64,000 bases of DNA from positions 2,956,322 through 3,020,321 of the forward strand of contig OZ241894.1 in assembly GCA_965203575.1 (NCBI GenBank). The letters run 5' to 3'. Position numbers and translations under genes: made by a program. Within the stretch, counting starts at the first letter, position 1. Every line of letters begins with the position of its first letter. The DNA is from Candidatus Aldehydirespirator sp. GTDB taxonomy: Bacteria; Actinomycetota; Acidimicrobiia; Acidimicrobiales; Aldehydirespiratoraceae. Below the pieces are notes generated by a model that saw only the letters and a list, made by a program, of their open reading frames with translations, did no database searches and was not told the DNA's origin. Positions 3,624-35,350 of the stretch are shown in pieces.

Positions 3624-3674
3624 CCCGTCGGCCTCTCCGGAACACGCGGACCGTTCATCGTCGTGCCGTCTCCA

Positions 3675-4826
3675 CTAGTACTCCTCGCGTACCCGGGCCA
3701 CGAACCGCGCTGCAACGACGTTGAGGCCCAGCGTTATCGCGAACAGCAGCAGCCCTACGAAGTACAGGCTCTGGAACGTGAGCCCCTCGCCCACCACGCT
3801 GTCCGTGCCCGAGGCCAGTGACGCCATGGCTGCCGTCATTGTCAGGCTGCCCTCGAAGGGCGAATCGGTGAACCGGGTGGCGTCGGCGGCTCCGCCGGCC
3901 AGGAAGACCACCATCGTCTCGCCGATGGCTCGGGAGACGGCCACTATGAAGGCGGCCACAATGCCGGAGATGGCCGCCGGCACGACGACCGTGGTCGCCG
4001 TGGCCATCTTGCGGGCCCCGAGGCCGGCCGATGCCTCTCGCAAGGAGTCGGGCACCGCGGCCATGGCGTCCTCGGAGATGGAGGCCACGAGAGGGATGGT
4101 CAGGATGCCCACTCCAATCCCGGCCGCGGCCAGTGAACCGGCTCGGGCCGGCGCGAACTCGAGCCAGACGTTGAGGAGCCAGGCCGCGGTCAACCCGAAG
4201 ATGGCGACGATCACCGCGATGGCGCCGACGGCGACGATGAGCGCAGACGAATCGGAGCCGCTCTCGCGGTAGTGCTTGATCCGGTTGCGTGCGACCCCGA
4301 TGGCTACGACGGCATACCCCGCCAGGATCATCGCACCGATGACCAGGAAGGTGTTCCTGCCGATGCGCCCGACGAGGTTGGGGGCGATCCAGGTGAGGGC
4401 GAAGAATCCCAGGACGACCGAGGGGATGCCGGCCAGGATCTCCAGCGCCGGCTTCAGCCAGGCTCGGACTCTGCGGTTGGCGTACTCCGACAGGTAGACG
4501 GCCGCGCCCAGGCCCAACGGTCCGGCCACGAGCATGGCGATGGCCGTGACGATGATGGAGGCGATGACGATTGTGGGTATGTCGTACAGGCCCCTCCGGG
4601 GGAACCAGCCCAGCTGTCCCCAGGTGTCGGCCCACGCCACGCCGGTGATGAACGTCCAGGCCTCCGCGACCAGGTTCCAAACGATCAGGGTGCTCACCAA
4701 CACCGACACGAGCGCCGCCGTCAGCAGGCTGAACCGGACGATCACCTCGCGGCGCCGGCGGGCGGGCGCGATCTGGAGGCGTTCGACCGTCAGCGGCACC
4801 GGGTGGGCGACGGTCGCATCGGTCAC
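3675..4826 (-). CDS. pstC: Phosphate ABC transporter permease PstC
   Basis: 383-aa polytopic membrane ORF with permease motif SRAIGETMVVFLAGG, positioned between pstS and pstA. Confidence 0.88.
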   Translation of the reverse strand: MTDATVAHPVPLTVERLQIAPARRRREVIVRFSLLTAALVSVLVSTLIVWNLVAEAWTFITGVAWADTWGQLGWFPRRGLYDIPTIVIASIIVTAIAMLVAGPLGLGAAVYLSEYANRRVRAWLKPALEILAGIPSVVLGFFALTWIAPNLVGRIGRNTFLVIGAMILAGYAVVAIGVARNRIKHYRESGSDSSALIVAVGAIAVIVAIFGLTAAWLLNVWLEFAPARAGSLAAAGIGVGILTIPLVASISEDAMAAVPDSLREASAGLGARKMATATTVVVPAAISGIVAAFIVAVSRAIGETMVVFLAGGAADATRFTDSPFEGSLTMTAAMASLASGTDSVVGEGLTFQSLYFVGLLLFAITLGLNVVAARFVARVREEY

Positions 4827-4871
4827 GGCGTGAAGCTACTTGGCATCAGGACTCGACGGGCACGCCCGTGG

Positions 4872-5978
4872 TCAGCTGATGACGGCCCGGTCGTGCCAGC
4901 GTCCGGCGGTCTCCGCGCGGGCCGCGTCGGTGAGCGGCACGTAGCCCACATCGCTGACCGCGGTGGATAGTGCCTCGGAGACGTAGAAGTCCACGTAGGC
5001 CACTATGGCGTCGTTGGCCGCGGCCTTGTCGGCGTTGACATAGATCCACAGGTCACGGCTGATGGGATACTCGTTCGAGGCAATGCTGTCCGGTGTCGGG
5101 CTGATGCAGCCGGCTCCACCGTCGATCTCGATCAGTTTGACACCCGTGGCGTTGACGGCGAATGCGAAACCGACCCAGCCCAGGCTCGTGTCGCTGGACT
5201 GGATTCCTTGAAGGATCACGTTGTCATTGCCTGAGGGGATGTAGTCGGTGCGGGTGGTGGCGTCCACTCCGGCTTCCTCGGCGAGGTCCTCGAGGACGAT
5301 CTCGATGAAGGAGTCGAAGGTTCCGGACTCCTCGCCGGGTCCGAAGATGTCCAGCGGGGCGTCGGGCAGGCCCGCGGAGGCCTCGGCCCAGGTGCTGGTG
5401 CCCTCGCCGTTGGGGCCGATCAAATCGAAGAGTTGATGGAAGTTCAGACACTCGACCGCGCCGTTGTTGGCGTTGGTCATGACCGCGATTCCGTCGATGC
5501 CCACCTTCAGCTCGATGACGTTGTTGATGCCGTTGGCGAAGCAGTCCTCCTTCTCGGAGTCCTTGATCTGGCGGGAGGCGTCGGAGATGTCGGTCTCGCC
5601 CGCGCAGAACAGCTTGAAACCGTCGCCGGTGCCGGGACCGTCAACAGTCACCGACACATCCGGGGCCGCGTCCTCGAACAGTTCGGCCACCCGGATCGAG
5701 ATCGGCTCAACCGTCGACGAACCCGAGATGTTCACCTCCCCCGAGACCGTCGAGGGGTCGACAGCGGGCTCGGCCATCTCTTCTTCGGTCATGGCTGCGA
5801 CTGTCGTGGTCGGCGCGGCGTCGGCAGCGCCGGTGTCGCCGGTGTCGGCAGTGCCGGTGTCGGAGGCGGCCGATGGGGTAGAGGTGTCTTCGTCGTCTCC
5901 GCCGCATGCTGCGGCCACTAGCGAGAAGCTCACGATGATCACCGGCAGCCAGAGGAGCCGGCGCCTTGAGTTGCGCAC
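4872..5978 (-). CDS. pstS: Phosphate-binding lipoprotein PstS
   Basis: 368-aa ORF with GTG start 5978..5976 and lipobox LVAAACGG. It has an acidic Thr/Asp-rich linker followed by a periplasmic-binding-protein body, and is the first gene of the pstSCAB order. Confidence 0.88.
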   Translation of the reverse strand: MRNSRRRLLWLPVIIVSFSLVAAACGGDDEDTSTPSAASDTGTADTGDTGAADAAPTTTVAAMTEEEMAEPAVDPSTVSGEVNISGSSTVEPISIRVAELFEDAAPDVSVTVDGPGTGDGFKLFCAGETDISDASRQIKDSEKEDCFANGINNVIELKVGIDGIAVMTNANNGAVECLNFHQLFDLIGPNGEGTSTWAEASAGLPDAPLDIFGPGEESGTFDSFIEIVLEDLAEEAGVDATTRTDYIPSGNDNVILQGIQSSDTSLGWVGFAFAVNATGVKLIEIDGGAGCISPTPDSIASNEYPISRDLWIYVNADKAAANDAIVAYVDFYVSEALSTAVSDVGYVPLTDAARAETAGRWHDRAVIS

Positions 5979-6078
5979 TTAGATGTCCCTCCCTTGGGAA
6001 ATGGCATGGCAAGCCCGCACCTGTTGCGGGCCGCAGGCAAGTTAGATGGGGCAAGGTTTCAGACAGCCGGGGCCACCG

Positions 6079-6121
6079 TGAAGCGGGAGTGAATGCCGGT
6101 GAACGGCAGGTGAATTTGTCA
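6079..6121 (-). promoter_or_regulatory. PHO-box-like array: four direct GTGAA (minus strand TTCAC) units phased at 11, 10 and 11 bp upstream of pstS
   Basis: Plus strand reads GTGAAGCGGGA GTGAATGCCG GTGAACGGCAG GTGAATTTGTC, with units starting at 6079, 6090, 6100 and 6111. On the pstS strand these read (G/A/C)TTCACnnnnn, resembling OmpR/PhoB-family direct-repeat operators. The array lies about 100-140 bp upstream of the pstS start. Confidence 0.6.
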
Positions 6122-7336
6122 GGCCAAGTCGTCCAGTGCGTCCTGGAGACGGCCCCGGTTGAAGCTGCTGACCTTCTCAACGACGGTCACGCCCGCGCCG
6201 TCGAGCAGTATCAGGTTGGGGTTGCCGGCCCTGTAGTGGCGCCAAGCGTCGTTGGACTCGCTCCACAGCGTGTGGGGCGGACCCCCAGCAGAGGCCACGA
6301 AGCTCTCGGCCTGGGCGCGGGTGTCCGATCCGCCCACGCCTATGACGATGACCTTGCCCTCGTTGTCTCGGGCGAACTGCCCGACGGGCCCTGCTTCGGC
6401 CCGGCAGATCGGTCAATGGGGGGCCCAGAACCAGAGCAACAGGGGCGTCGAGCCGTCCACGAAGTCGCGGAGGTTGACGGTCGCTCCCGTGCGCACATCG
6501 ATCATGTCCTGAGCCGGCACGTCGGTCTCGATGACCGGCGCGGCGGTGGTTGTGGGCGCGGCGGTCGTCGTTGGTGCGGCGGTGGTTGTGGGCGCGGCGG
6601 TGGTTGTGGGCGCGGCGGTTGTCGTGGTCTCGGCTTCAGCCGCCGCGGCCGCTTCGGCTTCCGCGGCGGCGGCTGCGGCTAGCGCCTCGGCCTCGGCGGC
6701 TGCGGCTTGAGCCTCGGCCTCGGCGATTGCGGCCAGGGCGGCGGCCTCCTCAGCTTCGGCGGCGGCTAGAGCGGCTGCCTCAGCCGCCGCGGCTTGGGCA
6801 GCCGCTTCTGCTTCGGCCGCGGCCTGCGCTTCGGCGGCGGCTTGGGCGGCTGCTTCAGCCTCCGCGGCGGCTTGGGCTGCGGCTTCGGCTTCGGCGGCGG
6901 CTTGGGCGGCTGCGGCGGCAGCCTCAGCCTCAGCTTCGGCTTCGACCTCGGCCTCCGCCGCGGCTCTAGCCGCGGCCGCTTCAGCTTCGGCTTGTGCTGC
7001 TTCGGCTTTGGCGGCGGCTTGGGCTGCTTCTGCTTCGGCCTCGGCTGCCTCGGCCGCGGTTCTGGCCGCCTCCGCCTGGGCTGCTTCTGCTTCGGCGGCG
7101 GCTTGGGCGGCTGCCTCCGCATCGGCGGCAGCGGCGGCTTCTGCTTCGGTGGCGGCTTGGGCGGCTGCTTCGGCTTCGGCCTCGGCTATGAGAGCGGCGT
7201 CATCGGCCGCGCTGGTGGTAGGCGTCTCGGCGGTGGCACCGCTGCCGGAGCTTGGCTCGTCGCTGCCGCAGGCCGCGGCCGCAAGAGCCACGGCCATGAG
7301 CACGGCGACGATCCGGGCGGGGTACGGCATCTTCAT
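6119..7336 (-). CDS. TlpA/ResA-like thioredoxin-fold lipoprotein, predicted selenoprotein (UxxC), with a long Ala/Glu-rich and (TTTAAP)5 spacer
   Basis: ORFs 6413..7336(-) and 6119..6337(-) are in one frame, joined through TGA 6415..6413. The joined sequence reads ...PLLLWFWAPH-U-PICRAEAGPVGQFARDNEGKVIVIGVGGSD...LILLDGAGVTV. Lipobox LAAAACGS. TGA occupies the first Cys position of the FWAxWCxxC motif. Confidence 0.7.
6368..6407 (-). promoter_or_regulatory. Candidate bacterial SECIS: two adjacent hairpins 11-49 nt downstream of the in-frame UGA of gene 6119..7336
   Basis: Minus strand after TGA: GGGCC-GAAGCAG-GGCCC (extendable by CTGCC/GGCAG), then TCGGGC-AGTTC-GCCCGA. The paralog has hairpins at the same offsets. 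Confidence 0.5.
6537..6626 (-). repeat. 5 x 18-bp tandem repeat encoding (TTTAAP)5
   Basis: Units ggcgcggcggtggttgtg start at 6537, 6555, 6573, 6591 and 6609. Units 1 and 4 are identical and the others differ at a few positions. Confidence 0.9.
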
Positions 7337-7339
7337 CGC

Positions 7340-7945
7340 TCAGGTTAGGGCAGCAAGCTGGTCGCTGAGCCTGGCTGCGTCGAAACTGCCGGGGCTGTCG
7401 TCGGCCAGGTTGCCGCCGCTGTCGAGCAGCCGCACGCTCGAGTTCCTCCCAACACCGAAGTGGCGCCACGACTCGTTGGAGTCACTCCACAGCATGGTGA
7501 AGGTGGTTCCGGTCTGGGACACGAACCGCTCGGCATAGGCGAAGTCGTCCTGGGCGCCGATACCCACGACCTTCACCTTGCCGGCGTTGTCTTGAGCGAA
7601 CTGCTCAAGGGCCGGAGCCTCTCTCCGGCAGGTCGGTCAATGGGGCGCCCAGAACCACAAGAGCAGAGGCGTCTCGCCGCTCACCAGCGACTGGAGATTG
7701 ACGGTCTCACCCGTGTACACGCTGACCATGTCGAGGTCGGGCACGTCGCCGGCCGCACTGGCAGCGGCGTCAGGAGCTGTCGCATCGGCACCGGTGGCGG
7801 CCTCTTCGGTGGTGATCGTGACGTCGACCGACCCGCAGGCGGCTGCCACGAGGGCGACCATCACCGCGCAGACAACGAATCGGACGTTCATTCGTCCTCG
7901 GATCTTCATTCGTCCTCGGATCTTCATTCGCCTTTCGATTCTCAT
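7340..7945 (-). CDS. TlpA/ResA-like thioredoxin-fold lipoprotein, predicted selenoprotein (UxxC); start ambiguous among four in-frame ATGs (7945, 7927, 7909, 7891)
   Basis: ORFs 7637..7987(-) and 7340..7576(-) are in one frame, joined through TGA 7639..7637. The joined sequence reads ...PLLLWFWAPH-U-PTCRREAPALEQFAQDNAGKVKVVGIGAQDD...VRLLDSGGNL. Lipobox LVAAACGS. ATG 7945..7943 overlaps the upstream gene's stop (ATGA). Confidence 0.7.
7591..7629 (-). promoter_or_regulatory. Candidate bacterial SECIS: two adjacent hairpins 11-49 nt downstream of the in-frame UGA of gene 7340..7945
   Basis: Minus strand after TGA: GCCGGAG-AGAGG-CTCCGGC (7629..7611), then CTTGAGC-AGTTC-GCTCAAG (7609..7591). Both stems are 7 bp perfect. 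Confidence 0.55.
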
Positions 7946-7958
7946 TCGTCTTTGCTCT
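7887..7958 (-). repeat. 18-bp tandem repeat (2 perfect + 2 degenerate copies), each carrying a purine-rich tract plus an in-frame ATG
   Basis: ttcattcgtcctcggatc at 7887..7904 and 7905..7922, with degenerate copies at 7923..7940 and 7941..7958. The minus-strand unit reads GATCCGAGGACGAATGAA. Confidence 0.9.
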
Positions 7959-8562
7959 TGCCGAGAGCCTTCTGCTCTTTCTTCCATGCCCGCACCCGTT
8001 GTAGCGCCTCCGGGCTGTCGATGTCGGCCACCGACCGGGGCTCGCTGTCGGCGAAGGCTCCGGCCTGCGCCTCCCAGCCGTCGGGACGGACGCCGAAGCG
8101 CTTGGCGAGCACGGCGGTCAGGATCCGGGCCTTCTCGTCCCCGTAGCCGGGGAGGTCCCGCAGTCGCCCGAAGAGATCCTCGCCGTTCGCCGCAGCGTTC
8201 CAGACCGCCCCGGCGTCGCCGTCGTAGTGATCAGCAACATGGCGGCACAGGGCCTGCATCCGTTTGGCCATCGAGGTCGGGAACCGGTGCAGCGCCGGCT
8301 TGGCCCTCACCAGGTCGGCGAAGGCATCGGGGTCCCGCTCCGAGATGTCGTGAGCGTCCAACCCGGCTCCGAGCCGCTCCGACAGGCGGAAGGGTCCCAT
8401 TAATGCCCACTCCATCGGGATCTGCTGGTCGAGCTGCATTCCCAGCAGCAGCGCCAGCGGGTCCGTGTTGAGCAGGCGGTCGGCGGCCTCGTCCCCGGTG
8501 ACCGCCAGGGTGCCCGTCCCGGCGTTCTGCGCTTGATTCTCCGTACCCACTGCCTGATTCAC
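7942..8562 (-). CDS. HhH-GPD-type base-excision DNA repair family protein
   Basis: 206-aa ORF with GTG start overlapping the aceE stop (GTGA). The DLPGYGDEKARIL hairpin-helix-type segment and overall similarity, from memory, point to actinobacterial HhH-GPD-type proteins. Confidence 0.6.
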   Translation of the reverse strand: MNQAVGTENQAQNAGTGTLAVTGDEAADRLLNTDPLALLLGMQLDQQIPMEWALMGPFRLSERLGAGLDAHDISERDPDAFADLVRAKPALHRFPTSMAKRMQALCRHVADHYDGDAGAVWNAAANGEDLFGRLRDLPGYGDEKARILTAVLAKRFGVRPDGWEAQAGAFADSEPRSVADIDSPEALQRVRAWKKEQKALGKSKDE

Positions 8563-11321
8563 TTCGCGGAGGATAACCGTGCGCCGGTGTCCGGGTGGCC
8601 GGGGTCGTCGCGGTCGACGTCGATGCCGTACCGGTCAATGGCGGCCGCCACCTCGTCCGGTGACACCTCGCCCGACTCCATCAGAGCCGACAGCACGGCC
8701 AGCACGATGTGCGGCCCGTCGACCTCGAAGAATCGCCGCAGCGCCTCCCTCGTGTCGGAGCGGCCGAACCCGTCGGTGCCCAACACGTGCAGCGGCCTCG
8801 GCGTGAAGCGGGCGATCTGGTCGGGAACCAGGGTCATGAAGTCGGTCACGGCCACGATCGGCCCGTCCGAGTCGGACAGCCTCCGGGTCACCATCGGCAC
8901 GACGGGCTCGGAGTCCGGGTTCAGCCGGTTGCGGCGCTCCACGTCCAGCGCCTCCCGCCTCAGACTCTGGTACGACGTGGCGCTCCAGAGCTCGGCCGAG
9001 GTGTCGTGATGCTCGGCCAGCAGCGCCTGAGCCTCGAGCGCGGCGCCCACCGACGCTCCCGAGAACAGGATGGTGGCCGAGCGTTTGCGGCCCCCGGGAC
9101 CGTCGTCGAACTTGTACAGGCCGCCGGTGATGTCGGAGTCGGTCACGTGGTCGGGACGGGACGGCTGCCCGTAGTTCTCGTTGTAGATGGTGATGTAGTA
9201 GAAGACGTCGGTGCCGTCGGCGGCGTCCGGCGGGTACATCCGGTGGAGGCCCTCGTCGACGATGGCGCCCAACTCGTAGGCGAAGGCCGGGTCGTAGGCC
9301 TCGCACGCCGGCACCGTCGAGGCCAGCACATGGCTGTGGCCGTCCTGGTGCTGGAGCCCCTCGCCCAGCAGCGTCGTGCGGCCCGCGGTCGCGCCGATGA
9401 GGAACCCCCGGGCCCGGGCGTCGGCCGCGGCCCAGATCGAGTCGCCCACCCGCTGGAAGCCGAACATGGAGTAGAAGGCGTAGAAGGGCACCATGGGCAC
9501 GCCGAGGTTGGCGTAGGACGTGGCCGCGGCCAGCCAGCTGGCCAGCGAGCCGCACTCGGTGATGCCCTCCTCGAGGATCTGGCCGTCGGTCGACTCGCTG
9601 TAGCTCAGCAGCAGGTCATGGTCCACCGGCTCGTAGAGCTGGCCATGGGGCGCGTAGATCCGGAACTCCCGGAACAGCGAGTCCATGCCGAAGGTGCGGG
9701 CCTCGTCGGGCACGATGGGCACGACCCGCCGTCCGAAGCTCTGGTCCCGCATCAGGTCGCGCAACAGGGCCGTGAACGCCATCGTGGTGGAGACCTCGCG
9801 CCCGCCGGAGCCCTTGCGCATGTCGATGAAGGGCCCGTCGGCGGGGAGGGCGATGGGGCGGCGGTCCCGCACCACCCGCCGCGGCACCGCGCCGTCGAGG
9901 GCGCGGCGGCGGTCCATCATGTAGCGGATCTCCTCCGAGTCTGGGGGCGGCCGGTAGTAGGGCGGGATCCCGTCGGCGAGGTCTGCTTCGTCGATCTCGT
10001 CCTCCATGTGCAGCCGCGAGCGCAGTTCCATCAGCTGCGTGGTGGTCATCTTCTTGATCTGGTGGGTGGCGTTGCGGCCCTCGAAGCCCTCACCCAGGGT
10101 CCATCCCTTGATGGTCTTGGCCAGGATCACGGTGGGCTGGCCCTTGACTTCGGTGGCGGCCTTGAACGCGGCGTACACCTTCTGGTAGTCGTGGCCTCCC
10201 CGGGGCAGGACCCGCAGATCCTCATCGCTGAGGTGGTCGACGAGCTTGCGCAGGCGGGGGTCGGGGCCGAAGAAGTGCTCCCGGATGTAGGCGCCGGTCT
10301 CCACCGCGTAGCGCTGGTACTCGCCGTCGACGGTGGTGGCCATCTTGTTGAGCAGGGCCCCGTCGGTGTCGCGCATCAGCAGCTCGTCCCACCTGGTGCC
10401 CCAGATCACCTTGATGACGTTCCAGCCCGCGCCGCGGAACACGCCCTCGAGTTCCTGGATGATCTTGCCGTTGCCCCGCACCGGGCCGTCGAGGCGCTGG
10501 AGGTTGCAGTTGACCACCCACTTCAGGTTGTCGAGGTCGTTGCGGCCGGCCAGGGCGATGGCCCCCAGGGTCTCGGGCTCGTCGCACTCGCCGTCGCCCA
10601 GGAAGCACCACACCGTGCTGTCGGAGGTGTCGTCGATGCGGCGGTTGTGCATGTACCGGTTGAAGCGGGCGTGGTAGATGGAGTTGATCGGCCCGAGACC
10701 CATCGACACCGTCGGGTACTCCCAGAAGTCGGGCATCAGCCGCGGGTGGGGGTAGCCCGACAGCCCGTTGCCGCCCACCTCCATCCGGAAGTTGTCGAGC
10801 TCCTGCTCGCTCAGGCGGCCCTCCAGGTAGGCCCGGGCGTACACGCCGGGAGCGGCGTGGCCCTGGAAGTAGATGTGGTCGCCGACCAGCCCGTCGTCCT
10901 TGCCCTTGAAGAAGTGGTTGAAGCCCACCTCGTACAGGGAGGCCGACGAGGCGAACGTGGACAGGTGGCCGCCGATCCCGTCGGCCGTCTTGTTGGCCCG
11001 GATGACCATCGCCGCCGCGTTCCAGCGGATGAAGCGGCGGATGCGCCGCTCGACCTGTTCGTTGCCCGGGAAGAAGGGCTGCTCGGAGGCGGGGATCGTG
11101 TTGATGTAGGGCGTGGACGTGGTCGGCGGCACGCCCACCCGCTGCTCGTTGGAGCGCTCGAGGAGCTTGGCGACTATGTAGCGGGCCCGTTCCCGTCCGC
11201 CGGCCGCGATGATGGCGTCGAGCGAGTCGATCCATTCCTGGGTCTCGGCCGGGTCGATGTCCGGAAGTTGGCGCAAAAAGTTGTCGGCCACCGCCCTCCA
11301 TGATGGCAGCAAAGCACGCAT
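8559..11321 (-). CDS. aceE: Pyruvate dehydrogenase E1 component (homodimeric AceE type)
   Basis: ORF 8559..11543(-) trimmed to ATG 11321..11319 (MRALLPSWRAVADNFLRQLPDIDPAETQEWIDSL...). About 920 aa with ThDP-binding region GDGECDEPE and a transketolase-like body. The start is uncertain by a few codons. Confidence 0.9.
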   Translation of the reverse strand: MRALLPSWRAVADNFLRQLPDIDPAETQEWIDSLDAIIAAGGRERARYIVAKLLERSNEQRVGVPPTTSTPYINTIPASEQPFFPGNEQVERRIRRFIRWNAAAMVIRANKTADGIGGHLSTFASSASLYEVGFNHFFKGKDDGLVGDHIYFQGHAAPGVYARAYLEGRLSEQELDNFRMEVGGNGLSGYPHPRLMPDFWEYPTVSMGLGPINSIYHARFNRYMHNRRIDDTSDSTVWCFLGDGECDEPETLGAIALAGRNDLDNLKWVVNCNLQRLDGPVRGNGKIIQELEGVFRGAGWNVIKVIWGTRWDELLMRDTDGALLNKMATTVDGEYQRYAVETGAYIREHFFGPDPRLRKLVDHLSDEDLRVLPRGGHDYQKVYAAFKAATEVKGQPTVILAKTIKGWTLGEGFEGRNATHQIKKMTTTQLMELRSRLHMEDEIDEADLADGIPPYYRPPPDSEEIRYMMDRRRALDGAVPRRVVRDRRPIALPADGPFIDMRKGSGGREVSTTMAFTALLRDLMRDQSFGRRVVPIVPDEARTFGMDSLFREFRIYAPHGQLYEPVDHDLLLSYSESTDGQILEEGITECGSLASWLAAATSYANLGVPMVPFYAFYSMFGFQRVGDSIWAAADARARGFLIGATAGRTTLLGEGLQHQDGHSHVLASTVPACEAYDPAFAYELGAIVDEGLHRMYPPDAADGTDVFYYITIYNENYGQPSRPDHVTDSDITGGLYKFDDGPGGRKRSATILFSGASVGAALEAQALLAEHHDTSAELWSATSYQSLRREALDVERRNRLNPDSEPVVPMVTRRLSDSDGPIVAVTDFMTLVPDQIARFTPRPLHVLGTDGFGRSDTREALRRFFEVDGPHIVLAVLSALMESGEVSPDEVAAAIDRYGIDVDRDDPGHPDTGARLSSAK

Positions 11322-27291: not shown

Positions 27292-28098
27292 GTGCTCGCG
27301 GATGCTGCGGCCGCGGTTGCCGCGGCCCGCCGGATGGTCGATGCCGCCGAACGCGTGACAGTCCTCACCGGGGCCGGCATCTCCACCGACAGCGGGCTGC
27401 CCGATTTCCGGGGCCCCAAGGGATTGTGGACGCGGGACCCGGCGGCCGAGCGGGCCTCGAACATCAACGTCTACGTGTCGGATCCCGAGGTTCGCCGCAG
27501 CAACTGGGCCCGCCGAGCCGAGGGCGCCCTGTGGGCCGACGTCGAGCCCAACCGGGGCCACGAGGCCCTGGTCCATCTGGAGGGGCGGGGCAAGCTCCAT
27601 CTGCTGATCACCCAGAACGTGGACGAGCTCCACCAGCTCGCCGGCAGCGACCCCGAGCTGGTGGTGGAGATACACGGCACGACCCGCAAGGTGCAGTGCC
27701 TGTCGTGCGACTACCGCGACGACATCGAGGTCGCGCTGGAGCGGGTGAGGGCCGGGGAGCCCGACCCGCAGTGCCCCCTTTGCGGCTGGCTCCTGAAGGC
27801 GGCCACGGTGTCGTTCGGACAGAGTCTCAACCACCTCGACCTGGTCCGAGCCGAGCGGGCCGCCCTGGAGTGCGACCTGTTCATGGCGGTGGGCACGACG
27901 CTGGCCGTGTCGCCCATCAACATGACCGCCCCGCTGGCCGCGCAGTCGGGGGCCGGCCTGATCATCGTGAACGGCGAACCCACCGAGTTCGACGCGCTGG
28001 CCGACGTGCTGGTGGGCGGATCCATCAGCGAAGTCCTGCCCGTCATCTGTGGTCTGGAGGCCGAGCCTGCGAGGCCCCTGGGCCAAAGCGGCCCGTGA
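27292..28098 (+). CDS. cobB: NAD-dependent protein deacylase, Sir2 family
   Basis: 268-aa ORF with GTG start. Motifs GAGISTDSGLPDFRG and QNVDELH, and zinc cysteines CLSC...CPLC. Confidence 0.88.
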   Translation: MLADAAAAVAAARRMVDAAERVTVLTGAGISTDSGLPDFRGPKGLWTRDPAAERASNINVYVSDPEVRRSNWARRAEGALWADVEPNRGHEALVHLEGRGKLHLLITQNVDELHQLAGSDPELVVEIHGTTRKVQCLSCDYRDDIEVALERVRAGEPDPQCPLCGWLLKAATVSFGQSLNHLDLVRAERAALECDLFMAVGTTLAVSPINMTAPLAAQSGAGLIIVNGEPTEFDALADVLVGGSISEVLPVICGLEAEPARPLGQSGP

Positions 28099-28119
28099 GC
28101 GCAGCGAACAAGAGCGGGC
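28061..28119 (-). repeat. REP-like element (long form, inverted orientation) overlapping the 3' end and stop codon of cobB
   Basis: The reverse complement matches the 25285..25345 copy at all but 2 of ~61 positions as aligned by eye. Confidence 0.85.
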
Positions 28120-28152
28120 ATCGGGGAAGCTGAAACACCCCTTGCTGGATGT

Positions 28153-28186: not shown

Positions 28187-29347
28187 ATGGCGAGCTTCAG
28201 AGAACTATTGCAGCAGGCCAAGGCTGAGATCCGCGAGGTCGACACCGCCGGCGGCGAGCAGCTGCTGGCCGAGGGCTGGACCCTTCTCGACGTGCGCGAG
28301 CCCGACGAGTACGAGCAGGGCGCGATTCCCGGCTCCGTGCACATCCCCCGGGGCCAGCTCGAGTCGAGCATCGAGAACCGGGTAGCCGACCGGTCCACCC
28401 CGCTGGTGGCCATGTGCGCGGGCGGCGTGCGCTCAGCCTTCGCGGCCGTGACCCTTGAGCAGATGGGCTACACCGACGTGGTGTCCATGGACGGCGGCTT
28501 CAACAAGTGGAAGGACGAGGGCCGGGCCTGGGCGCGGCCCCGCACCCTGTCGCCCGACCAGCGCAACCGCTACCAGCGCCACCTGCTGGTGCCCGAGGTG
28601 GGCGAGGAGGGCCAGCTCAAGCTGCTCGACGCCAAGGTCCTGCTGCTCGGCGCGGGCGGCCTCGGCTCCCCGGCGGCCCTTTACCTCGCGGCCGCTGGAG
28701 TGGGCACCATCGGCATCATCGACATGGACGTGGTCGACGAGTCCAACCTCCAGCGTCAGGTCCTGCACAACGTCGACCGGGTGGGCGACCGCAAGGTGGA
28801 CTCGGCCAAGAAGACCCTCACCGCGCTGAACCCCGACGTCAACGTGGTCACCTACGACGCCCGGCTCGGCGCCGACAACGTCATGGAGATCCTCGACGGC
28901 TACGACGTGGTGGTCGACGGGGCCGACAACTTCCCGAGCCGCTACCTGCTCAACGACGCCTCGGTCAAGCTGGGCATACCGGTGGTCCACGGGTCGATCT
29001 TCCGCTTCGAGGGCCAGGTCACCGTGTTCGACCCCCGAAACGGGCCCACCTACCGCGACATGCTGCCCGAGCCGCCGCCGCCCGAGATGGCGCCGAGCTG
29101 CGCGGAGGCCGGGGTGCTGGGCGTGCTGCCCGGCATCGTCGGCAGCGTGCAGGCCCTCGAGGCCATCAAGCTGATCCTGGGAGTGGGGGATTCGCTGCGG
29201 GGCCGCCTGGTGGCCTTCGACGCGCTGGAGATGAGCTTCCGCGAGTTCAAGCTGCGGCCCGACCCCTCCAACGAGGTCACCTACGACAACCGGGACCGCA
29301 TCCAGGTCGGCGAACTCGACGGCCTCTGCATGCCGACGCTGTCATAG
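28187..29347 (+). CDS. Rhodanese (N-terminal) - MoeB/ThiF E1-like adenylyltransferase fusion (MoeZ-like function, inverted domain order)
   Basis: 386-aa ORF. Rhodanese active-site loop CAGGVRS at about aa 77-83. E1 domain motifs LLGAGGLGSP, DESNLQRQ and PSCAEAGVLG. Confidence 0.8.
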   Translation: MASFRELLQQAKAEIREVDTAGGEQLLAEGWTLLDVREPDEYEQGAIPGSVHIPRGQLESSIENRVADRSTPLVAMCAGGVRSAFAAVTLEQMGYTDVVSMDGGFNKWKDEGRAWARPRTLSPDQRNRYQRHLLVPEVGEEGQLKLLDAKVLLLGAGGLGSPAALYLAAAGVGTIGIIDMDVVDESNLQRQVLHNVDRVGDRKVDSAKKTLTALNPDVNVVTYDARLGADNVMEILDGYDVVVDGADNFPSRYLLNDASVKLGIPVVHGSIFRFEGQVTVFDPRNGPTYRDMLPEPPPPEMAPSCAEAGVLGVLPGIVGSVQALEAIKLILGVGDSLRGRLVAFDALEMSFREFKLRPDPSNEVTYDNRDRIQVGELDGLCMPTLS

Positions 29348-29424
29348 CTCCCTACGGCCGCCTCTCCTAGCTTCTCCTAGACTCCGGGGGTTCGTTTCCC
29401 TGGAAGGACCGCGCCATCGGACAG

Positions 29425-30699
29425 TTGCTGAACAATCTCCGGGTGCGCCTGCGGAGCCTGCTGCCGTTCGGAACCTCCTGGATTCTCTGGGGTCTGGTCT
29501 TCAACGGGCTCACCACCTACGGGTACCTGGTGGTGGCCGGGCGCGCCCTGGGCGACGACGGCTACGGCAGCCTGGCCGTGCTGTGGGCCCTGGTCAACAT
29601 CGGCGGCTTCGGCCTGTTCCAGCCCCTCGAGCAGGAGGTGGCCCGGGCCACCGCCGACCGGGCCAGCCGGGGCGTGGGCAGCGCACCGGTCCTGAGCCGG
29701 GCGGGTGTGCTGGGCGCGGCCCAGTTCGTGCTGGTGACCGCGGGCCTGCTGGCGGCCTGGCCGCTCGGGCTCGACCAGCTGCTCGACGGCCGGCCGGAGC
29801 TGCTCCTGGCCCTCGTTCTCGCCCTGGGCGCATTCGCCGGCTCCCAGCTGGTGCGGGGCGTCCTCGGGGGCCGCCACATGTTCGACCGCTACGCGTGGTA
29901 CTTCGTGGTCGAGGGTGGGGCCCGCATGGCCTTGGCCGTAGCGCTGCTGGTCGCCGGGGTGGCCGCGGTGGGGGCCTACGGGCTGGCCATCGCCTTCGCG
30001 CTGGTGGTCGCCACCATCGCCGCGGCCGGCCCCCACCGGCCCTTCGTGCGGTCCGGGCCGCCGGCCTCCTACCGCGAGCTCACGCCCGCCCTGGGCTTCC
30101 TGCTCATCGCCGCCATCGGCGAGGCCTTCATCCTCAATGTGGGGCCGGTGGCGGTGGACATCGTGGGCGGCGACGAGCTGGGGGCCGAGGCGCCCGGCGT
30201 GTTCCTCAACGGCATGCTCATCGCCCGCATCCCGCTGTTCTTCTTCCAGGCGGTGAAGGCCAGCCTGCTGCCCAGCCTGGCCACGCTGGCCGGCCGGGGC
30301 GACCTCGTCGGGTTCCGCAACATGCAGCTCAAGATCGTGGCCGCGGTGGCGGCGGTGGCCCTGGCGACCACAGTGGTGGCCGGGGTGGTGGGGCCGCCGA
30401 TCGTGCGGGTCGTGTTCGGTGACGAGCTGGGCCGCAGCGACATGGCGCTGCTGGCTGCCAGCGGGGGAGGCCTGATGCTGATGCTGTCGCTGACGCTGGG
30501 CCTGGTCGCGCTGGATCACACCCGCCTGGCGGTAGTCGGATGGATAGCCGGGATCGCGGCCTTCGCGGTCGTGGTCAGCTTCGACTTCGAGCCGTTCCTG
30601 CGGGTGGAGCTGGCCCTGGTGGCCGCGGTGGCTGCCGGCTCGCTGGTGGCCGGCGGCCTGTTGCGCCACCAGTACGCGGCCCACGCCCGCGACGCCTAG
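29425..30699 (+). CDS. Polytopic membrane protein, putative MOP-family (Wzx/MurJ-like) flippase
   Basis: 424-aa ORF with TTG start and about 12 hydrophobic segments. The family call is from general appearance only. Confidence 0.45.
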   Translation: MLNNLRVRLRSLLPFGTSWILWGLVFNGLTTYGYLVVAGRALGDDGYGSLAVLWALVNIGGFGLFQPLEQEVARATADRASRGVGSAPVLSRAGVLGAAQFVLVTAGLLAAWPLGLDQLLDGRPELLLALVLALGAFAGSQLVRGVLGGRHMFDRYAWYFVVEGGARMALAVALLVAGVAAVGAYGLAIAFALVVATIAAAGPHRPFVRSGPPASYRELTPALGFLLIAAIGEAFILNVGPVAVDIVGGDELGAEAPGVFLNGMLIARIPLFFFQAVKASLLPSLATLAGRGDLVGFRNMQLKIVAAVAAVALATTVVAGVVGPPIVRVVFGDELGRSDMALLAASGGGLMLMLSLTLGLVALDHTRLAVVGWIAGIAAFAVVVSFDFEPFLRVELALVAAVAAGSLVAGGLLRHQYAAHARDA

Positions 30700-30708
30700 G
30701 TGTTCCTA

Positions 30709-30742
30709 GGACGGGATCCGCGACCGCTGGTCCGTGCCGAGT
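30709..30742 (+). repeat. Left copy of a 34-bp imperfect direct repeat (31/34 identical to 34856..34889)
   Basis: GGACGGGATCCGCGACCGCTGGTCCGTGCCGAGT, compared with GGACGGGATCGCCGACCCCTGGTCCGTGCCGAGT. Confidence 0.9.
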
Positions 30743-30778
30743 CGAGATAGAGCCTTCGTGGCCGATCAGCCGCGGCTT

Positions 30779-32422
30779 TCACACTTCAAGGTTCAGTTCC
30801 CACCGGTTGCGCCGGTTCTTGCGCGTCGGCTCGGTGGAGCGAACCAGGCCGCGGTCGGCCATTTGGTTGAGCCAGCGCAGGATTGCCTGCTGGGATATGC
30901 CGATCAACCCCGCCAGTTCGCTTGAGCTTCGGGATCCACCCGCGAGAAGATCGATGATTTCACGCTCGCGTTGCGACAACCTCGGAGCTTGCTCGGTGGC
31001 TTCGGTGGATGACAAAGGCCCACGGCGCGTCGGAGGGCGTGCCCCATCGGGTGGCCACGGGTCGTGATTTCCGCCTCCTGGGATCCGAACGCGTGTCCCA
31101 TCATGTGACAGTGGTCGCGGGCTGGGGTGGGCGCGGCGATCGTGGATCACCACCTGAAGCTCGCTCACGTCATCCGTGATGACCGGTGTCGAGAGGCCCG
31201 CCTGGCGCAGAACCGCCACTGCGGCCCGCAGGCCCGATCCGCGGTTCTCGCAGACGGGCCGGCCGGTGTCGGGGATCACCACGTCCTCGAGCAGCTTCGC
31301 CAACCGGGCGTTGCGCGTGGCGGTGACACCCCGCCTGATCAACTCGTCCACATCGGACCTGCCCGCGTTGGCGCCGTGAAGCCCGCCGGCGCTGCAAACC
31401 TCGAATCGGTCGGGAAAGAGGGCAATCCGTACTTGGCTGCCGTGGGCAGACGGGTGGTAGTCGCGGTGCATCAAGGCATTGGCGACGATCTCGCGGACCG
31501 CCTCGATCGGGTAGTCCCAAGAGTCCTCGCGCCCGGCGCCGACGACGACTGAGCGGCGTCGCATGTTGCGGCGCATGGCATCCAGAGCCCCCGACACGAC
31601 CATCGGAATCGGCCCGTCAAGAGGTTGGTTGTCGAGGAAGCGGGTGCCGTCGGCCATCGGCTCGCCGCTGACGGTGGGCAGCACGACGAACGAAGCGGCG
31701 AGTTGAGGGAGGAACCGTTGGGGGAAGCGCCCGAGCGCGAGCAGGCCCGCCAGCGTCACCGCGGACTCGGCCTCGGGCTCAGCGATCACGCCCATCATGT
31801 GCAGGACCTCCTCGTCGCTGGACTGCGCGAACACGGCGCCGCGCGTCTCGCGCAGCCGTTGGAGCAGCGCTTGGGTCAACCGGGGGTCGAGATCACCGAT
31901 CCCCGAACGCTCGACGGGCGCCTCGTCCTCGGCTGGCTGGCCCCGTCCCGAGACCATCACATGAACCTCGTAGGAGTTCAATCGCCGGTCGCCGTCGTGA
32001 GTCCTCAGGTACGACCCCCTGTCCATGCCCTTCGACAAGAGGTAACACGGCCTCCTCTGGTACTCCAGGGCCTCGACGCGGGCCACCACCACGGGGCGGC
32101 CATCCACCGACGCGATGTCGATCTCGGGCCGCACGGCAGGCGCCAACCCGTCCGAGCAGACCGAAGCGAGGTGGGCGGCCAGTCCCGCCGCGTCGATGTC
32201 GACCGGACTGAAGTCGCCGTCGGTCAGTCCGAGGATGAGGAGGCCGCCGGCGGCGTTGGCGAATGCGCACACAGACTCCAGTGCCGTGCTGGGCAGCCCG
32301 CCTGCGGCCCGCTTGACCTCCACCGCCTGCAAGTCCGTGCCCGCGGCGCGCAGCCGTTCGACGGCGGCGTCAAGCACGCCCTGCAAGTTGGAGGGGACCG
32401 AGTCCGAGGTATTCCGCACCAA
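30779..32422 (-). CDS. AlbA_2 (Schlafen-like) + HATPase_c_4-type ATP-binding protein with C-terminal wHTH; putative transcriptional regulator
   Basis: 547-aa ORF. N-terminal ESVCAFANAAGGLLILG (AlbA_2 signature), central REIVANALMHRDY (GHKL-like N-box) and C-terminal LSQREREIIDLL...SSELAGLIGISQQAILRWLNQM HTH. Confidence 0.7.
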   Translation of the reverse strand: MVRNTSDSVPSNLQGVLDAAVERLRAAGTDLQAVEVKRAAGGLPSTALESVCAFANAAGGLLILGLTDGDFSPVDIDAAGLAAHLASVCSDGLAPAVRPEIDIASVDGRPVVVARVEALEYQRRPCYLLSKGMDRGSYLRTHDGDRRLNSYEVHVMVSGRGQPAEDEAPVERSGIGDLDPRLTQALLQRLRETRGAVFAQSSDEEVLHMMGVIAEPEAESAVTLAGLLALGRFPQRFLPQLAASFVVLPTVSGEPMADGTRFLDNQPLDGPIPMVVSGALDAMRRNMRRRSVVVGAGREDSWDYPIEAVREIVANALMHRDYHPSAHGSQVRIALFPDRFEVCSAGGLHGANAGRSDVDELIRRGVTATRNARLAKLLEDVVIPDTGRPVCENRGSGLRAAVAVLRQAGLSTPVITDDVSELQVVIHDRRAHPSPRPLSHDGTRVRIPGGGNHDPWPPDGARPPTRRGPLSSTEATEQAPRLSQREREIIDLLAGGSRSSSELAGLIGISQQAILRWLNQMADRGLVRSTEPTRKNRRNRWELNLEV

Positions 32423-32562
32423 GAAGAGACTCTACGTCGCCGTCACGATTGCTACAACTTTTCTACAAGATATTTTCAACTTATCTGAAAACAAACTGCG
32501 ACTGCCTACTATCCGGACATCGCCGCCGAGGACCTGCTCGACGGCTGCCGGCCCCGACGCTG

Positions 32563-34776
32563 TCACACGCAGGACAGCGGGCCCAGGGCAGTGGCAGCGC
32601 CGGTGACGTTGAACTCCATGCCCTCAGCGTTGCCGACTGTGCTTCCGGGGATGACGGTGAGATACAGCGTGCCCGCTTGGGTGGTTGCCAGCCTGGAAGC
32701 GAGCGACGACCGCTCCGACGCCCACACCGCGCTGTCCGGGTCCTCGTTACTCCACCAGTCGTTCTCAGTCACGGGCGTTGACATCGCCGGGGCGATGCGC
32801 CACCTGACTGTTGAACGGTCGTATGTGAAATCGTTGAAGATCAAGAACGGTGTGATCACGAAGACAGCGTCGTTTCCGGACGCTCCACGGGTGCCGCACC
32901 TGATGACCAACACCGGTGGTTCTTGCCAGTCGTAAGCTCCGTATGCCCTGCCTTGAACGAACGCGACCACGTAGGAACCGTCTATGTTCTCACCTGACTG
33001 CGTGTTCCATTCGCCCCCTGTCGACTGGCCGAACGGCCTGGGCGGAGCATTCGTGGGCCAGTCGCATGAATGCCTCAAGAACGAGACAGCGTCTTCCACG
33101 CCACGCAACGAGAACTCTGAGCGGATGGCTAGCCGCTCCCTGTGGTCCTGCCCCTCAAAGACGAGCCTGTCCGCTCGTCGCAGCGGTGAGGTGAAACCTC
33201 GAGCGTGGCCGTCAACGGCGACGGAATGGGCGCCGTCTTGGCTCACCCACCAGTTCCTCTCGGTCTCGGTGCCTCCATCGAACGAGTACACGACTTGGAC
33301 TCGGCCATCGGCGTTCCCTCTCACCGGCAGGCCGCCCCACCAGACTCCCAGCCAGTAAGGAGTCTGAAGGTTGGTGGAAGAGCAGGACAGGTACAGGTAC
33401 GGCTCCCAGTCGCAGCCGTCCATCAAGGCGTCGTCATGGTCGGTGATGGTGTACTTGTCGGTCCACAGATATGCAGACCCGCCGTCCGAGTCCCTGTGAT
33501 GCCACCATCCTCCGGTGCCCTCAGTCCATCCAGGCTCATCGACGGTTCCTGGCTCTTCACCGAAGCACTCAACCCACGATAAGCCGCCGGATACTCTCGA
33601 CGGTCCTCCGGTCGTGATCCGGGGCATCCGCTCGGTGAGGGTCGATGAAGCTATGGCGTACGAGATGCCCTCAACGTCCAGGTGGACCAACTTGGCGACG
33701 ACCATGCCCACGACTCTGCCGCATGAGTCCAGCAGCGGTCCTCCGCTGTTGCCCGGGGACACGGCTGCGTCGGTGACGATCAAGGTGCCCAGATCATCGT
33801 CCTCATCAATGCGTGACACCACGCCGCGCGTGATTGACGCACTGGATCCGTGACCGAGCGGGAACCCGACGGCGTAGACGGTGTCGCCCGGTTCGATGTC
33901 GGACATTCTCCCGAACTGCATGACCGGTATGCCCTGCCCACTGGCTTGAAGAAGCGCCACATCAGCCGCCAGATCCCCGCCGAGTATGGAAGCGTCCCTG
34001 CTGATGTCTCCCAGAGCGAGCCTCACTTCAGTGCTGTTCTGCACGACATGGGCCGCTGTCAGCCATCTCTGCCCGCCCACATAGAATGCCGAGCCGGTCC
34101 CGCCGCCGGTGTCGACGCGCCAGACAGCCTTCGTCGCTTGGGAGGACGAGAACACACATTCACCCGTGCCGACCTGAGAATCGTCAGGATCCTCGCCTGG
34201 CGGTGCAGTCCTCCACCCGGGCAGGGATCCGTCCGGCAGAGGCACCTGATCGAAGTAGCCCAGACCCGCCAAACAGTTCAACGCGTCTCGCTTGAAACTG
34301 CTCTCAGAAGAGAGGTCCACGAATCGGTCAGCCGACGCGCAGCCACTCAACGCAGCACGGCCCCCGGGCATCTCGTCACGCACGAACTTGTAGGTGAGCA
34401 CACCGAACCAGCCTTTGGAGAGCCTCTGGTCCGGATGGAACAACCTGCCCTGACTGGGTGACCCGCTGGGCGCGGGCACTTCGTCGAAGTAACCCATGTC
34501 CGCCAGACAGTTCAAGGCGTCTCGCTTGAACTGAGACTCATCGCCCAAGTCATCGAAGCTGTTGGACTGGTCGCACTCGCTGAGCGCTGCGGCACCGCCC
34601 GGCATCTCGTCACGCACGAACTTGTAGGTGAGCACTCCGAACCAGCCTTTGGAGAGCCTCTGGTCCGGATGGAAGAATTCGCTCGTCACCGCAGCCGCTG
34701 AAACGGGTACGACGCTCAACGTGACGATCGCGACAAGAACGGTGACCTTCACCGAGAGCTTCAAGAATGAGGCCAT
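32563..34776 (-). CDS. Secreted multidomain trypsin-like (S1/HtrA-type) serine protease
   Basis: 737-aa ORF with signal peptide MASFLKLSVKVTVLVAIVTLSVVPVSAAA. Two ~78-aa SLH-like repeats. Protease core motifs TAAHVV (His), DVALL (Asp) and GNSGGPL (Ser). About 330-aa C-terminal region with two related Trp-rich, Cys-bracketed modules. Confidence 0.8.
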   Translation of the reverse strand: MASFLKLSVKVTVLVAIVTLSVVPVSAAAVTSEFFHPDQRLSKGWFGVLTYKFVRDEMPGGAAALSECDQSNSFDDLGDESQFKRDALNCLADMGYFDEVPAPSGSPSQGRLFHPDQRLSKGWFGVLTYKFVRDEMPGGRAALSGCASADRFVDLSSESSFKRDALNCLAGLGYFDQVPLPDGSLPGWRTAPPGEDPDDSQVGTGECVFSSSQATKAVWRVDTGGGTGSAFYVGGQRWLTAAHVVQNSTEVRLALGDISRDASILGGDLAADVALLQASGQGIPVMQFGRMSDIEPGDTVYAVGFPLGHGSSASITRGVVSRIDEDDDLGTLIVTDAAVSPGNSGGPLLDSCGRVVGMVVAKLVHLDVEGISYAIASSTLTERMPRITTGGPSRVSGGLSWVECFGEEPGTVDEPGWTEGTGGWWHHRDSDGGSAYLWTDKYTITDHDDALMDGCDWEPYLYLSCSSTNLQTPYWLGVWWGGLPVRGNADGRVQVVYSFDGGTETERNWWVSQDGAHSVAVDGHARGFTSPLRRADRLVFEGQDHRERLAIRSEFSLRGVEDAVSFLRHSCDWPTNAPPRPFGQSTGGEWNTQSGENIDGSYVVAFVQGRAYGAYDWQEPPVLVIRCGTRGASGNDAVFVITPFLIFNDFTYDRSTVRWRIAPAMSTPVTENDWWSNEDPDSAVWASERSSLASRLATTQAGTLYLTVIPGSTVGNAEGMEFNVTGAATALGPLSCV

Positions 34777-34855
34777 CAGATCGAGCGAGCAACGGGCACG
34801 CCACCCAGTCTAAGTCCGCACGCTGGATCGGCTGTTGTGAGGGACGGCGAACTGC

Positions 34856-34889
34856 GGACGGGATCGCCGACCCCTGGTCCGTGCCGAGT
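34856..34889 (+). repeat. Right copy of the 34-bp imperfect direct repeat
   Basis: See 30709..30742. Confidence 0.9.
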
Positions 34890-34894
34890 TGCGC

Positions 34895-35350
34895 TCAACT
34901 GTGGTTGATCGGAGCCACGCCCTTGAGCTTCAGAAGCAGCCATCGACCGAGCTTCAACCACGGGTAGCCCAGACGCGCGGCCACCGGGGAATTGAACGCC
35001 AGCCGGTTGATCCTGTTGAACACGCCGCGGCTCTCGGCGAGGAGCGCAAGCTCGTTGAGCGCCTCGTGACCGACGTAGTAGCGCCCGTCCACTATTGCGA
35101 CCATGCCGTCGTTGAGATCGTGCGGCAGGCCGCGAACCTCCTCCACGACCGGACCGCCCTGGCGAGCATCGATGAGGGTGAGTTCCTTGACCGACTGCTT
35201 GAGCCTCAGGAATTGGGCGTAGTTGCTGCACAACGGGCACTCGCCGTCATAGACCAACCGAATCTGGTCGACCCGCCCGCGCTGGTCCGCCGATCGGAGG
35301 CGCTTCACCGCGCGGAAGGGTATACCAATGATCGGCAGGGACTGCATCAA
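34895..35350 (-). CDS. DCC-family (DUF393) thiol-disulfide oxidoreductase
   Basis: 151-aa ORF with the family motif YDGECPLCSNY. Confidence 0.8.
   Translation of the reverse strand: MMQSLPIIGIPFRAVKRLRSADQRGRVDQIRLVYDGECPLCSNYAQFLRLKQSVKELTLIDARQGGPVVEEVRGLPHDLNDGMVAIVDGRYYVGHEALNELALLAESRGVFNRINRLAFNSPVAARLGYPWLKLGRWLLLKLKGVAPINHS

Follow-up and report, generated by a model that had tools for sequence, protein, structure and literature searches.

How do two genes come to lie between nearly identical 34-bp direct repeats inside a surface-glycan locus that has no recombinase gene nearby? This question is raised by a stretch of 64 kb (hereafter the window, meaning the whole stretch of DNA that was analyzed; contig OZ241894.1, positions 2,956,322 to 3,020,321) in the genome of Candidatus Aldehydirespirator sp., which consists of a single contig of 3.93 Mb with 68.8% GC and is labeled G000 here, other genomes and loci being given handles that begin with G or L. 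An initial annotation of this DNA had described a 4.2-kb islet between two 34-mers, and had explained it either as a decayed or mobilizable integrated element with att-like ends or as a second family of intergenic repeats that happens to flank two genes. The description has held well: the positions and sequences of the repeats are exact, searches of open reading frames (ORFs) and domains agree that precisely two genes are enclosed, an AlbA_2/HATPase regulator gene and a secreted Trypsin_2 protease gene, both on the minus strand, the AT-rich spacer between them is real, and their ORFs carry domains other than those of an integrase or transposase. The explanations have fared less well, an insertion with a duplicated target being supported but neither the att-ended element nor the repeat family, and our best reading is that the islet is a real, fairly ordinary and decaying recombination scar, and not a working mobile element. 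The features are listed in Table 1.

The left 34-mer, GGACGGGATCCGCGACCGCTGGTCCGTGCCGAGT, and the right 34-mer, GGACGGGATCGCCGACCCCTGGTCCGTGCCGAGT, stand in direct orientation and agree at 31 of 34 positions, that is, they have diverged by three mismatches or 9%, and their longest run of perfect identity is 16 bp. Dinucleotide shuffles of the region never produced a second match to the 34-mer (0/100), and a Hamming scan of both strands of the whole genome, with up to 9 mismatches allowed, returned no third copy, the 16-nt core CTGGTCCGTGCCGAGT being restricted to the two sites. Since L038, a separate assembly from this species (99.3% identity over 12.6 kb), has both 34-mers letter for letter, the structure is not an assembly artifact. 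A pattern search of the 39 species genomes of the genus recovered two copies here, one in G051 and no others, and beyond G051 there was no match in 185,579 species genomes or in the JGI metagenome contigs. The idea of a dispersed intergenic family, like the repetitive extragenic palindromic (REP) sequences or miniature inverted-repeat transposable elements (MITEs), is encouraged by the presence nearby of another such family, a REP-like repeat of ~60 nt upstream of the ThiF/rhodanese gene (window ~28057-28120) that has many copies here and in all congeners, with 83-98% identity. With only two copies of the 34-mer in 3.93 Mb, one in a single species of the 38 others in the genus, and none in the other collections, this alternative is refuted, and its probability is negligible.

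The relatives preserve the empty site that the initial annotation had suggested looking for, in which the flippase-like gene lies next to the gene of a DCC1-like thiol-disulfide oxidoreductase (DCC) with a single 34-mer. In G051 (OZ241903.1, a metagenome-assembled genome of Candidatus Aldehydirespirator sp., Acidimicrobiales), which is ~95% identical in the flanks, window positions 28187-30745 align with locus positions 5009-7568 and window positions 34855-35349 with 7531-8025, the two alignments overlapping by 38 nt on one 34-mer. The layout there is flippase TAG, GTGTTCCTC, 34-mer, CGACC, DCC stop, and a metagenome contig (L041, ~94% identical) has the same single-copy layout, the overlap of the flank alignments being 38-39 nt across the two relatives. 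In the genome studied here, the left copy retains the flippase-side context (spacer and CGA) and the right copy the DCC-side context; because each copy has one native flank and the empty site has a single copy, the arrangement points to an insertion that duplicated its target. Two other views of the junctions were rejected. The bases GATAGA (30746-30751) might have been random filler at an end-joined junction, yet L042 and L029 conserve TGCCSAGTCSAGATAGA, therefore neither GATAGA nor the junction CGAGATAGA is filler; the stretch TGCCGAGTCGAGATAGA, which spans the junction, is kept in both as well. A longer original duplication that extended into DCC was discarded in turn, the flanks beyond the 34-mers being no more alike than shuffled sequences (1051/2000).

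Regarding the provenance of the repeat, its distribution indicates that the 34-mer belongs natively to the DCC gene, as its 3′ flank, and forms one module with it. Diverged, significant homologues occur only directly downstream of DCC, namely in L025 and G023 (2/500 shuffles each); where DCC is absent, none follows the flippase gene, and a 34-mer-like sequence 3′ of the L026 flippase gene was dismissed as not significant (368/500 shuffles). In the transcript, the right 34-mer and that of G051 fold as CGGAC-CA-GGGGUC-NNN-GAUCCC-GUCCG, with a stem that begins 13 nt past the DCC stop codon, and the two variable positions (34-mer positions 11-12, which read CG, GC and TA in the three copies) sit in the loop of this hairpin. 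Shuffled sequence folds with energies that are just as good (z from -0.74 to +1.07), the left copy folding worse, and no tRNA, tmRNA or Rfam family was found in the region, nor did a consensus scan detect a U-tract terminator at either of the 34-mers. On these grounds, a stable RNA or terminator was rejected, and the sequence may be read as a weak, terminator-like tail of the DCC module.

The enclosed genes, in turn, are at home in this locus. Gene orders in the relatives, obtained from protein searches and context look-ups, place both the protease and the regulator in the slot between the flippase-like gene (F) and the glycosyltransferase (GT) gene of congeners, where they occur in at least six other arrangements. 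The order in L029 is F, the closest homologue of the regulator (95% amino acid identity), a 735-aa protein that shares only the N-terminus of the protease (X735), the conserved upstream region of the protease module (u), a spacer termed S, and GT; L026 has F, protease, u, GT, and L027, L039 and L040 share the order F, another AlbA_2 gene that runs the opposite way, protease, GT. In L041, the single-copy site continues as F, 34-mer, DCC, 163 nt, protease (93.7% nucleotide identity), GT. L025 has GT, DCC, protease, an NYN gene and a second protease, which in the orientation of the window reads protease, u, S, a 34-mer-like sequence, DCC, further sequence and GT, with the protease on the 3′ side of DCC as here. 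Finally, F directly adjoins GT in G015 and G008, and DCC in G005, G007 and G023, while G011 and G024 have other inserts. The repeat pair is present in none of these alternative arrangements (L025, L026, L027, L029, L039-L041 and the G-genomes).

A comparison by segments gives a mosaic. Resemblance to G051 (91-95%) is found at the left junction and along the 34-mer-plus-DCC stretch; the 3′ half of the flippase gene, the regulator and the GT gene are L029-like (95-97%); and the ends of the protease gene match L026, L027 and L029 (88-92%) around a diverged middle, the best matches thus alternating between G051-like and L029/L026-like. The GT gene is 91-96% identical to its counterparts in L029, L026 and G015, and merely 71-76% identical to that of G051. 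Within the protease gene, the 5′ 600 nt and the 3′ 450 nt are 84-92% conserved among congeners, with 59-73% amino acid identity overall. The flippase gene is itself a fine-scale mosaic, a G051-like patch (~29907-30003) being embedded in an L029/G010-like gene; ten consecutive informative sites match G051 in this patch, whose length (~100 nt) is that of a gene-conversion tract. From these comparisons, the islet genes appear to be modules that circulate within the same hypervariable surface-glycan locus among congeners.

Other observations on the same slot document its restlessness. Between the flippase and DCC genes of L013 (G007:C39, 1600-1715), a remnant of the regulator 3′ flank, GCCGATCAGCCCCGGCT, runs directly into an operator-like array with 11-nt phasing, TTGCTACAACTTTCTTGAAACTTTGCTGAAACTTT, and the regulator gene is absent; it seems, judging from this remnant, to have been deleted there. 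L020 (G024:C1:1634400-1638200) has another AlbA_2-type gene, oppositely oriented and with AT-rich repeats of its own, a duplicated 76-nt flippase fragment (corresponding to window 30448-30523) and a C-terminal coding relic of a transposase, presumably of the IS1380 family. In L015 (G023:C1:1596000-1601000, ~3975-4170), a unit of ~75 nt comprising the last codons of the flippase gene, its stop and downstream sequence is tandemly triplicated. The flippase genes of G010 (L004/L018) and L029 are near-identical (branch lengths 0.003-0.004), and the two loci are wholly different after the stop codon, which is followed by another GT-like gene in G010 and by the regulator in L029; even inside one species-level lineage, therefore, the slot is variable.

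The polarity and age of the event can be read from the same relatives. Maximum-likelihood trees of the left flank unite G000, L038, L029 and G010 in one clade (support 97/99) and leave G051, L041, G015, G005 and G023 outside; since the adjacency of F, 34-mer and DCC, or of F and DCC, is the outgroup state, insertion in the G000 lineage is favored over deletion in G051 and L041. Decay of the scar is apparent in L042, which is 97% identical, has the same gene order and keeps the right copy (33/34), and which is without window positions 30700-30734 (35 nt, comprising the spacer and the first 26 nt of the left copy), the flippase TAG being joined to TGCCCAGTCCAGATAGA. L029 has the identical 35-nt deletion and keeps the regulator, and as the left copy is mostly gone in both while the regulator stays, this copy is dispensable for the regulator. 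At the other end, spacer S, which separates u from the 34-mer in L025 and from GT in L029 and is homologous between the two (0/500 shuffles), is missing here, hence u and the 34-mer became joined secondarily in this genome. The 9% divergence of the two copies is similar to the 5-7% found among these lineages, which makes the event old, about as old as the species group. Because the 16-bp run of perfect identity is shorter than the minimal RecA processing segment of 23-27 bp quoted in PMC12074656, efficient excision today would be unlikely, and the islet is probably now effectively fixed.

With moderate confidence, which derives from these comparisons, we attribute the islet to recombinase-independent additive recombination that would have been anchored on 34-38 bp of homology in a hypervariable surface-glycan locus. 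The ancestral state would have been that of the sister lineages, in which the flippase stop, 9 nt, the 34-mer, 6 nt and the DCC stop follow each other and the genes are convergent. A block of 4.1 kb (window 30746-34854), made up of the AlbA_2 regulator, its operator-like spacer, the surface protease and the protease upstream region, would then have been added at the 34-mer in the lineage of this genome, and the 34-38-bp segment would have been duplicated, one copy being left with the flippase side and the other with DCC. This may have occurred by a Campbell-type single crossover in the 34-mer with a circularized fragment whose source, a related locus, would already have had the protease upstream region beside the 34-mer-plus-DCC stretch, as in L025, or else by homology-facilitated illegitimate recombination (HFIR). 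Both HFIR and circularization followed by recA-dependent single crossover have been documented experimentally (PMC3240628; PMC5361080), and a similar route is proposed for the additive arrays of orphan immunity genes at type VI secretion system loci of Vibrio cholerae (PMC5361080). The scar is decaying, and the cargo does not need it.

Several points weigh against this account. Its mechanism and enzymology are purely inferred, and the searches found no donor in the exact arrangement that would have preceded the insertion, a peptide-pattern search of the genome contigs for the protease returning no match. A homology of 34-38 bp barely exceeds the minimal RecA segment, the clean duplication of a hairpin-containing site would be equally expected from a site-specific recombinase, and the regulator family adjoins tyrosine integrases in other congeners. 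The adjacency of u, 34-mer and DCC also occurs in the more distant L025, which would fit recombination between gene orders at least as well, and the local tree may differ from the species tree in such a recombining region.

The most serious of the alternatives, although an unlikely one, is that the 34-mers are the attL and attR of a tyrosine recombinase and the islet a decayed or mobilizable element that has lost its integrase or is served in trans by one encoded elsewhere in the genome. Such an origin would explain why the empty site holds exactly one copy, a length of 34-38 bp falls within the size range of integrase core sites, and the hairpin of the site, with its variable positions 11-12 in the loop, would be in keeping with it, as would the two phage-type integrases of this genome and the Arm-binding tyrosine integrases that adjoin close regulator paralogues (77-80% amino acid identity) in G024 and L030. 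However, neither the islet nor the 64-kb window encodes a tyrosine or serine recombinase: PF00589 has four matches genome-wide (at 473572, 2881219, 3086445 and 3399494), all outside the window, and PF00239 has none in the genome. Moreover, the sites of the integrase-linked paralogues are without the 34-mer (at least 14 mismatches), no other 34-mer exists in the genome or, bar the empty site of G051, in the 38 congeners and the wider collections searched, and the two copies have drifted 9% apart. With the cargo resident at the same locus without the repeat pair in relatives that are ~84-94% identical in the shared flanks, no linked recombinase, and a left copy that has been deleted in relatives that keep the cargo, the element with att ends envisaged at the outset is not supported. 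A variant of the same idea would see in the hairpin of the DCC module a dedicated attC-like site, at which an unlinked host recombinase shuffles cassettes (DCC, protease and AlbA_2 regulators) at the end of the surface-glycan operon; what leaves room for it is that the 34-mer stands at the end, toward the flippase gene, in all cassette orders seen, and that the variable positions lie in the loop, and we consider it very unlikely.

There may also have been no insertion at the 34-mer at all. If two gene orders, one L041-like with DCC on the flippase side of the protease and one L025-like with DCC on its GT side, were joined by homologous recombination or tandem duplication, two DCC-plus-34-mer modules would arise, and the regulator could later have replaced the DCC on the flippase side and left its 34-mer as a footprint. 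Both orders do occur in nature, the conserved ends of the protease gene around its diverged middle are suited to crossover, the secondary joint between u and the 34-mer implied by the missing spacer S agrees with such a history, and on its flippase side the left copy has exactly the context seen in G051. Yet no trace of a second DCC is discernible beside the left copy, where the flanks resemble shuffled sequence, the similarity of the two copies (91%) exceeds that of the L025 orthologue (~75%), and at least three events are needed against one for additive recombination, so that we judge this history improbable.

Membership in the established classes of elements was considered along the same lines. 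Insertion sequences (IS) have a transposase, terminal inverted repeats and a target duplication of 2-14 bp; here, neither ORF has a transposase domain, the repeats are direct and not inverted, and the duplication is 34-38 bp, and a composite transposon is disfavored likewise. For an integron cassette one would expect IntI, an attI site and a series of structured attC sites, and at this locus there is no integrase nearby, there are two sites only, and the hairpin is no more stable than those of shuffled sequences. With integrase-mediated islands and integrative mobilizable elements the islet shares the direct repeats at both ends, the single-copy empty site in a relative and the insertion at the 3′ flank of a gene; unlike them, it has no recombinase in or beside it, no tRNA target and no other att copies, and its cargo is native to the locus in relatives. 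The signs of an additive-recombination scar are present, namely a duplicated segment with one native flank per copy, an insert derived from the locus, and flanks with recombination tracts.

Among the systems described so far, the wzy (O-antigen polymerase) locus of Salmonella Typhimurium DT8/DT30, which is flanked by repeats and reversibly excised, is the closest documented case (PMC12074656). In both, a segment of a surface-glycan locus lies between direct repeats (called attL/attR in Salmonella) with no dedicated recombinase identified, and related strains have an empty site with one copy, RecA-type recombination being discussed for wzy (PMC12074656). The wzy repeats, in contrast, are perfect over 113 bp, with excision and the circular form demonstrated, whereas those of the islet span 34 bp with 3 mismatches and share at most 16 bp in an unbroken run; the cargo differs as well, being a glycan enzyme there and a regulator with a protease here. 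HFIR and single-crossover acquisition (PMC3240628; PMC5361080) resemble the islet in the addition of related variable-locus DNA through one short homology, without a site-specific recombinase and with the older module kept, although those cases rest on experiments or many arrays and here one event is inferred by comparative genomics. The locus as a whole resembles replacement flexible islands and the cassettes for surface polysaccharides and surface-layer (S-layer) glycans, since conserved flanks (ThiF/flippase and GT) enclose a gene set that differs in almost every species, with mosaic recombination tracts and lower GC at third codon positions (GC3). At polysaccharide and S-layer loci, genes are usually exchanged by double-crossover replacement without any duplication at the junction, whereas the event described here left one of 34 bp.

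The initial annotation had also noted that the islet is less GC-rich than its flanks, and this is true only in part. At 64.5% GC, the islet falls at the 7th percentile of equal-sized windows of the genome, and the protease gene is low as well (62.4%, 3.7th percentile; GC3 at the 7th percentile), but the regulator gene, at 68.2% GC (34th percentile) and the 24th percentile of GC3, is unremarkable. Outside the right repeat, DCC has 63.4% GC with a GC3 of 0.84 and the GT gene 70-71% with a GC3 of 0.81, and the left flank (flippase and ThiF genes) is unusually GC-rich (70-75%; GC3 0.95, 98th percentile). With DCC low in GC, DCC and GT both below average in GC3, and a GC-rich left flank, the composition marks the whole glycan locus and not the segment bounded by the repeats, and the GC contrast is weak evidence of foreign origin.

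Table 1. Features of the islet and its surroundings (window positions unless another locus is named).
Feature	Position	Strand	Remarks
Flippase-like (Polysacc_synt-like) membrane protein gene	29425..30699	+	Conserved left flank
9-nt spacer GTGTTCCTA, from flippase stop to left 34-mer	30700..30708	+	Matches the G051 empty-site spacer (GTGTTCCTC) at 8/9 bases
Left 34-mer	30709..30742	+	Orphan, no DCC after it; hairpin weakened (G at position 18, A before position 1)
Junction sequence CGAGATAGA after left copy	30743..30751	+	CGA matches the G051 empty site
Regulator-like protein, 547 aa	30779..32422	-	Domain hits: Schlafen/AlbA_2, HATPase_c_4 and C-terminal winged helix-turn-helix (HTH)
AT-rich spacer, upstream region of the regulator	32423..32562	-	53.6% GC
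Phased operator-like arrays	32450-32490; L021 4120-4170; L030 ~7960-8000; L031 ~6790-6830; L029 ~9940-9980		
Secreted trypsin-like protease (S1, Trypsin_2), 737 aa	32563..34776	-	Two N-terminal 78-aa repeats
u, conserved upstream region of the protease module	34777..34852	-	Adjoins the GT gene in L026, L029, L025 and G024
Right 34-mer	34856..34889	+	Native 3′ flank of DCC (as judged from its distribution); starts 6 nt after the DCC stop
DCC1-like thiol-disulfide oxidoreductase gene	34895..35350	-	95% identity to G051, 93% to L041
Large dual-GT2 glycosyltransferase gene, 1220 aa	35395..39057	-	Conserved right flank

The AT-rich spacer between the two genes contains 11-nt-phased CTACAAC/AAGTTGTAG units that are typical of the regulator family, and it also includes the 3′ flank of the protease module (32524-32562). 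Arrays of AAGTTGTAG (CTACAACTT) with the same phasing lie just 5′ of the start in every member of the regulator family examined, and this position suggests that the array is probably an operator for autoregulation; its presence accounts for the AT-rich character of the spacer. Paralogues of the regulator (75-80% amino acid identity) occupy a conserved slot elsewhere, in L021 (G024:C1:3917000-3927000, 2730-8579), L030 (6540-12363) and L031, beside AHSA1-like and GlnRS/GluRS genes, with an Arm-binding tyrosine integrase in G024 and L030 and none shown in L031. The G024 paralogue gene is bracketed by an imperfect direct repeat of ~21 nt (ACATAGCCGCCGATTGGTAGC and ACATGACCGCCGACTGGTAGC) and its last ~25 nt are duplicated downstream, which resembles the edge of a true integrase island.

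The protease lacks Pfam SLH domains, which are present in more distant homologues (35-45% amino acid identity, 52-70% query coverage). In L042, a deletion of 452 nt (window 34293-34744) splits its gene into two ORFs, and the 735-aa protein of L029 (7465-9672) has only the N-terminal repeats of the protease in common and no Pfam domain. The stretch 34805-34848, which follows the transposase relic in G024, was considered as an IS1380-like end and rejected because the same stretch is the conserved spacer upstream of the protease and downstream of GT in L026, L025 and L029. A defense system was likewise rejected, the PADLOC matches being at the level of domains only, to the Schlafen/HATPase segment associated with prokaryotic Argonaute (pAgo) and to a trypsin domain.

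By itself, the finding alters no concept; it is well documented and not conceptually new. It provides a well-resolved natural example of a surface-glycan locus, in an uncultivated, sponge-associated actinobacterial genus, that gains genes additively and not by replacement, with the intermediates preserved in relatives, where the site may be empty, carry the scar intact or half deleted, or have its genes in another order. If the hairpin of the DCC module were after all an attC-like site, the locus would represent a cassette-exchange system for cell-envelope variation in Acidimicrobiia. The surface-anchored protease and the AlbA_2/HTH regulator are candidates for strain-specific interaction with the host or with phages.

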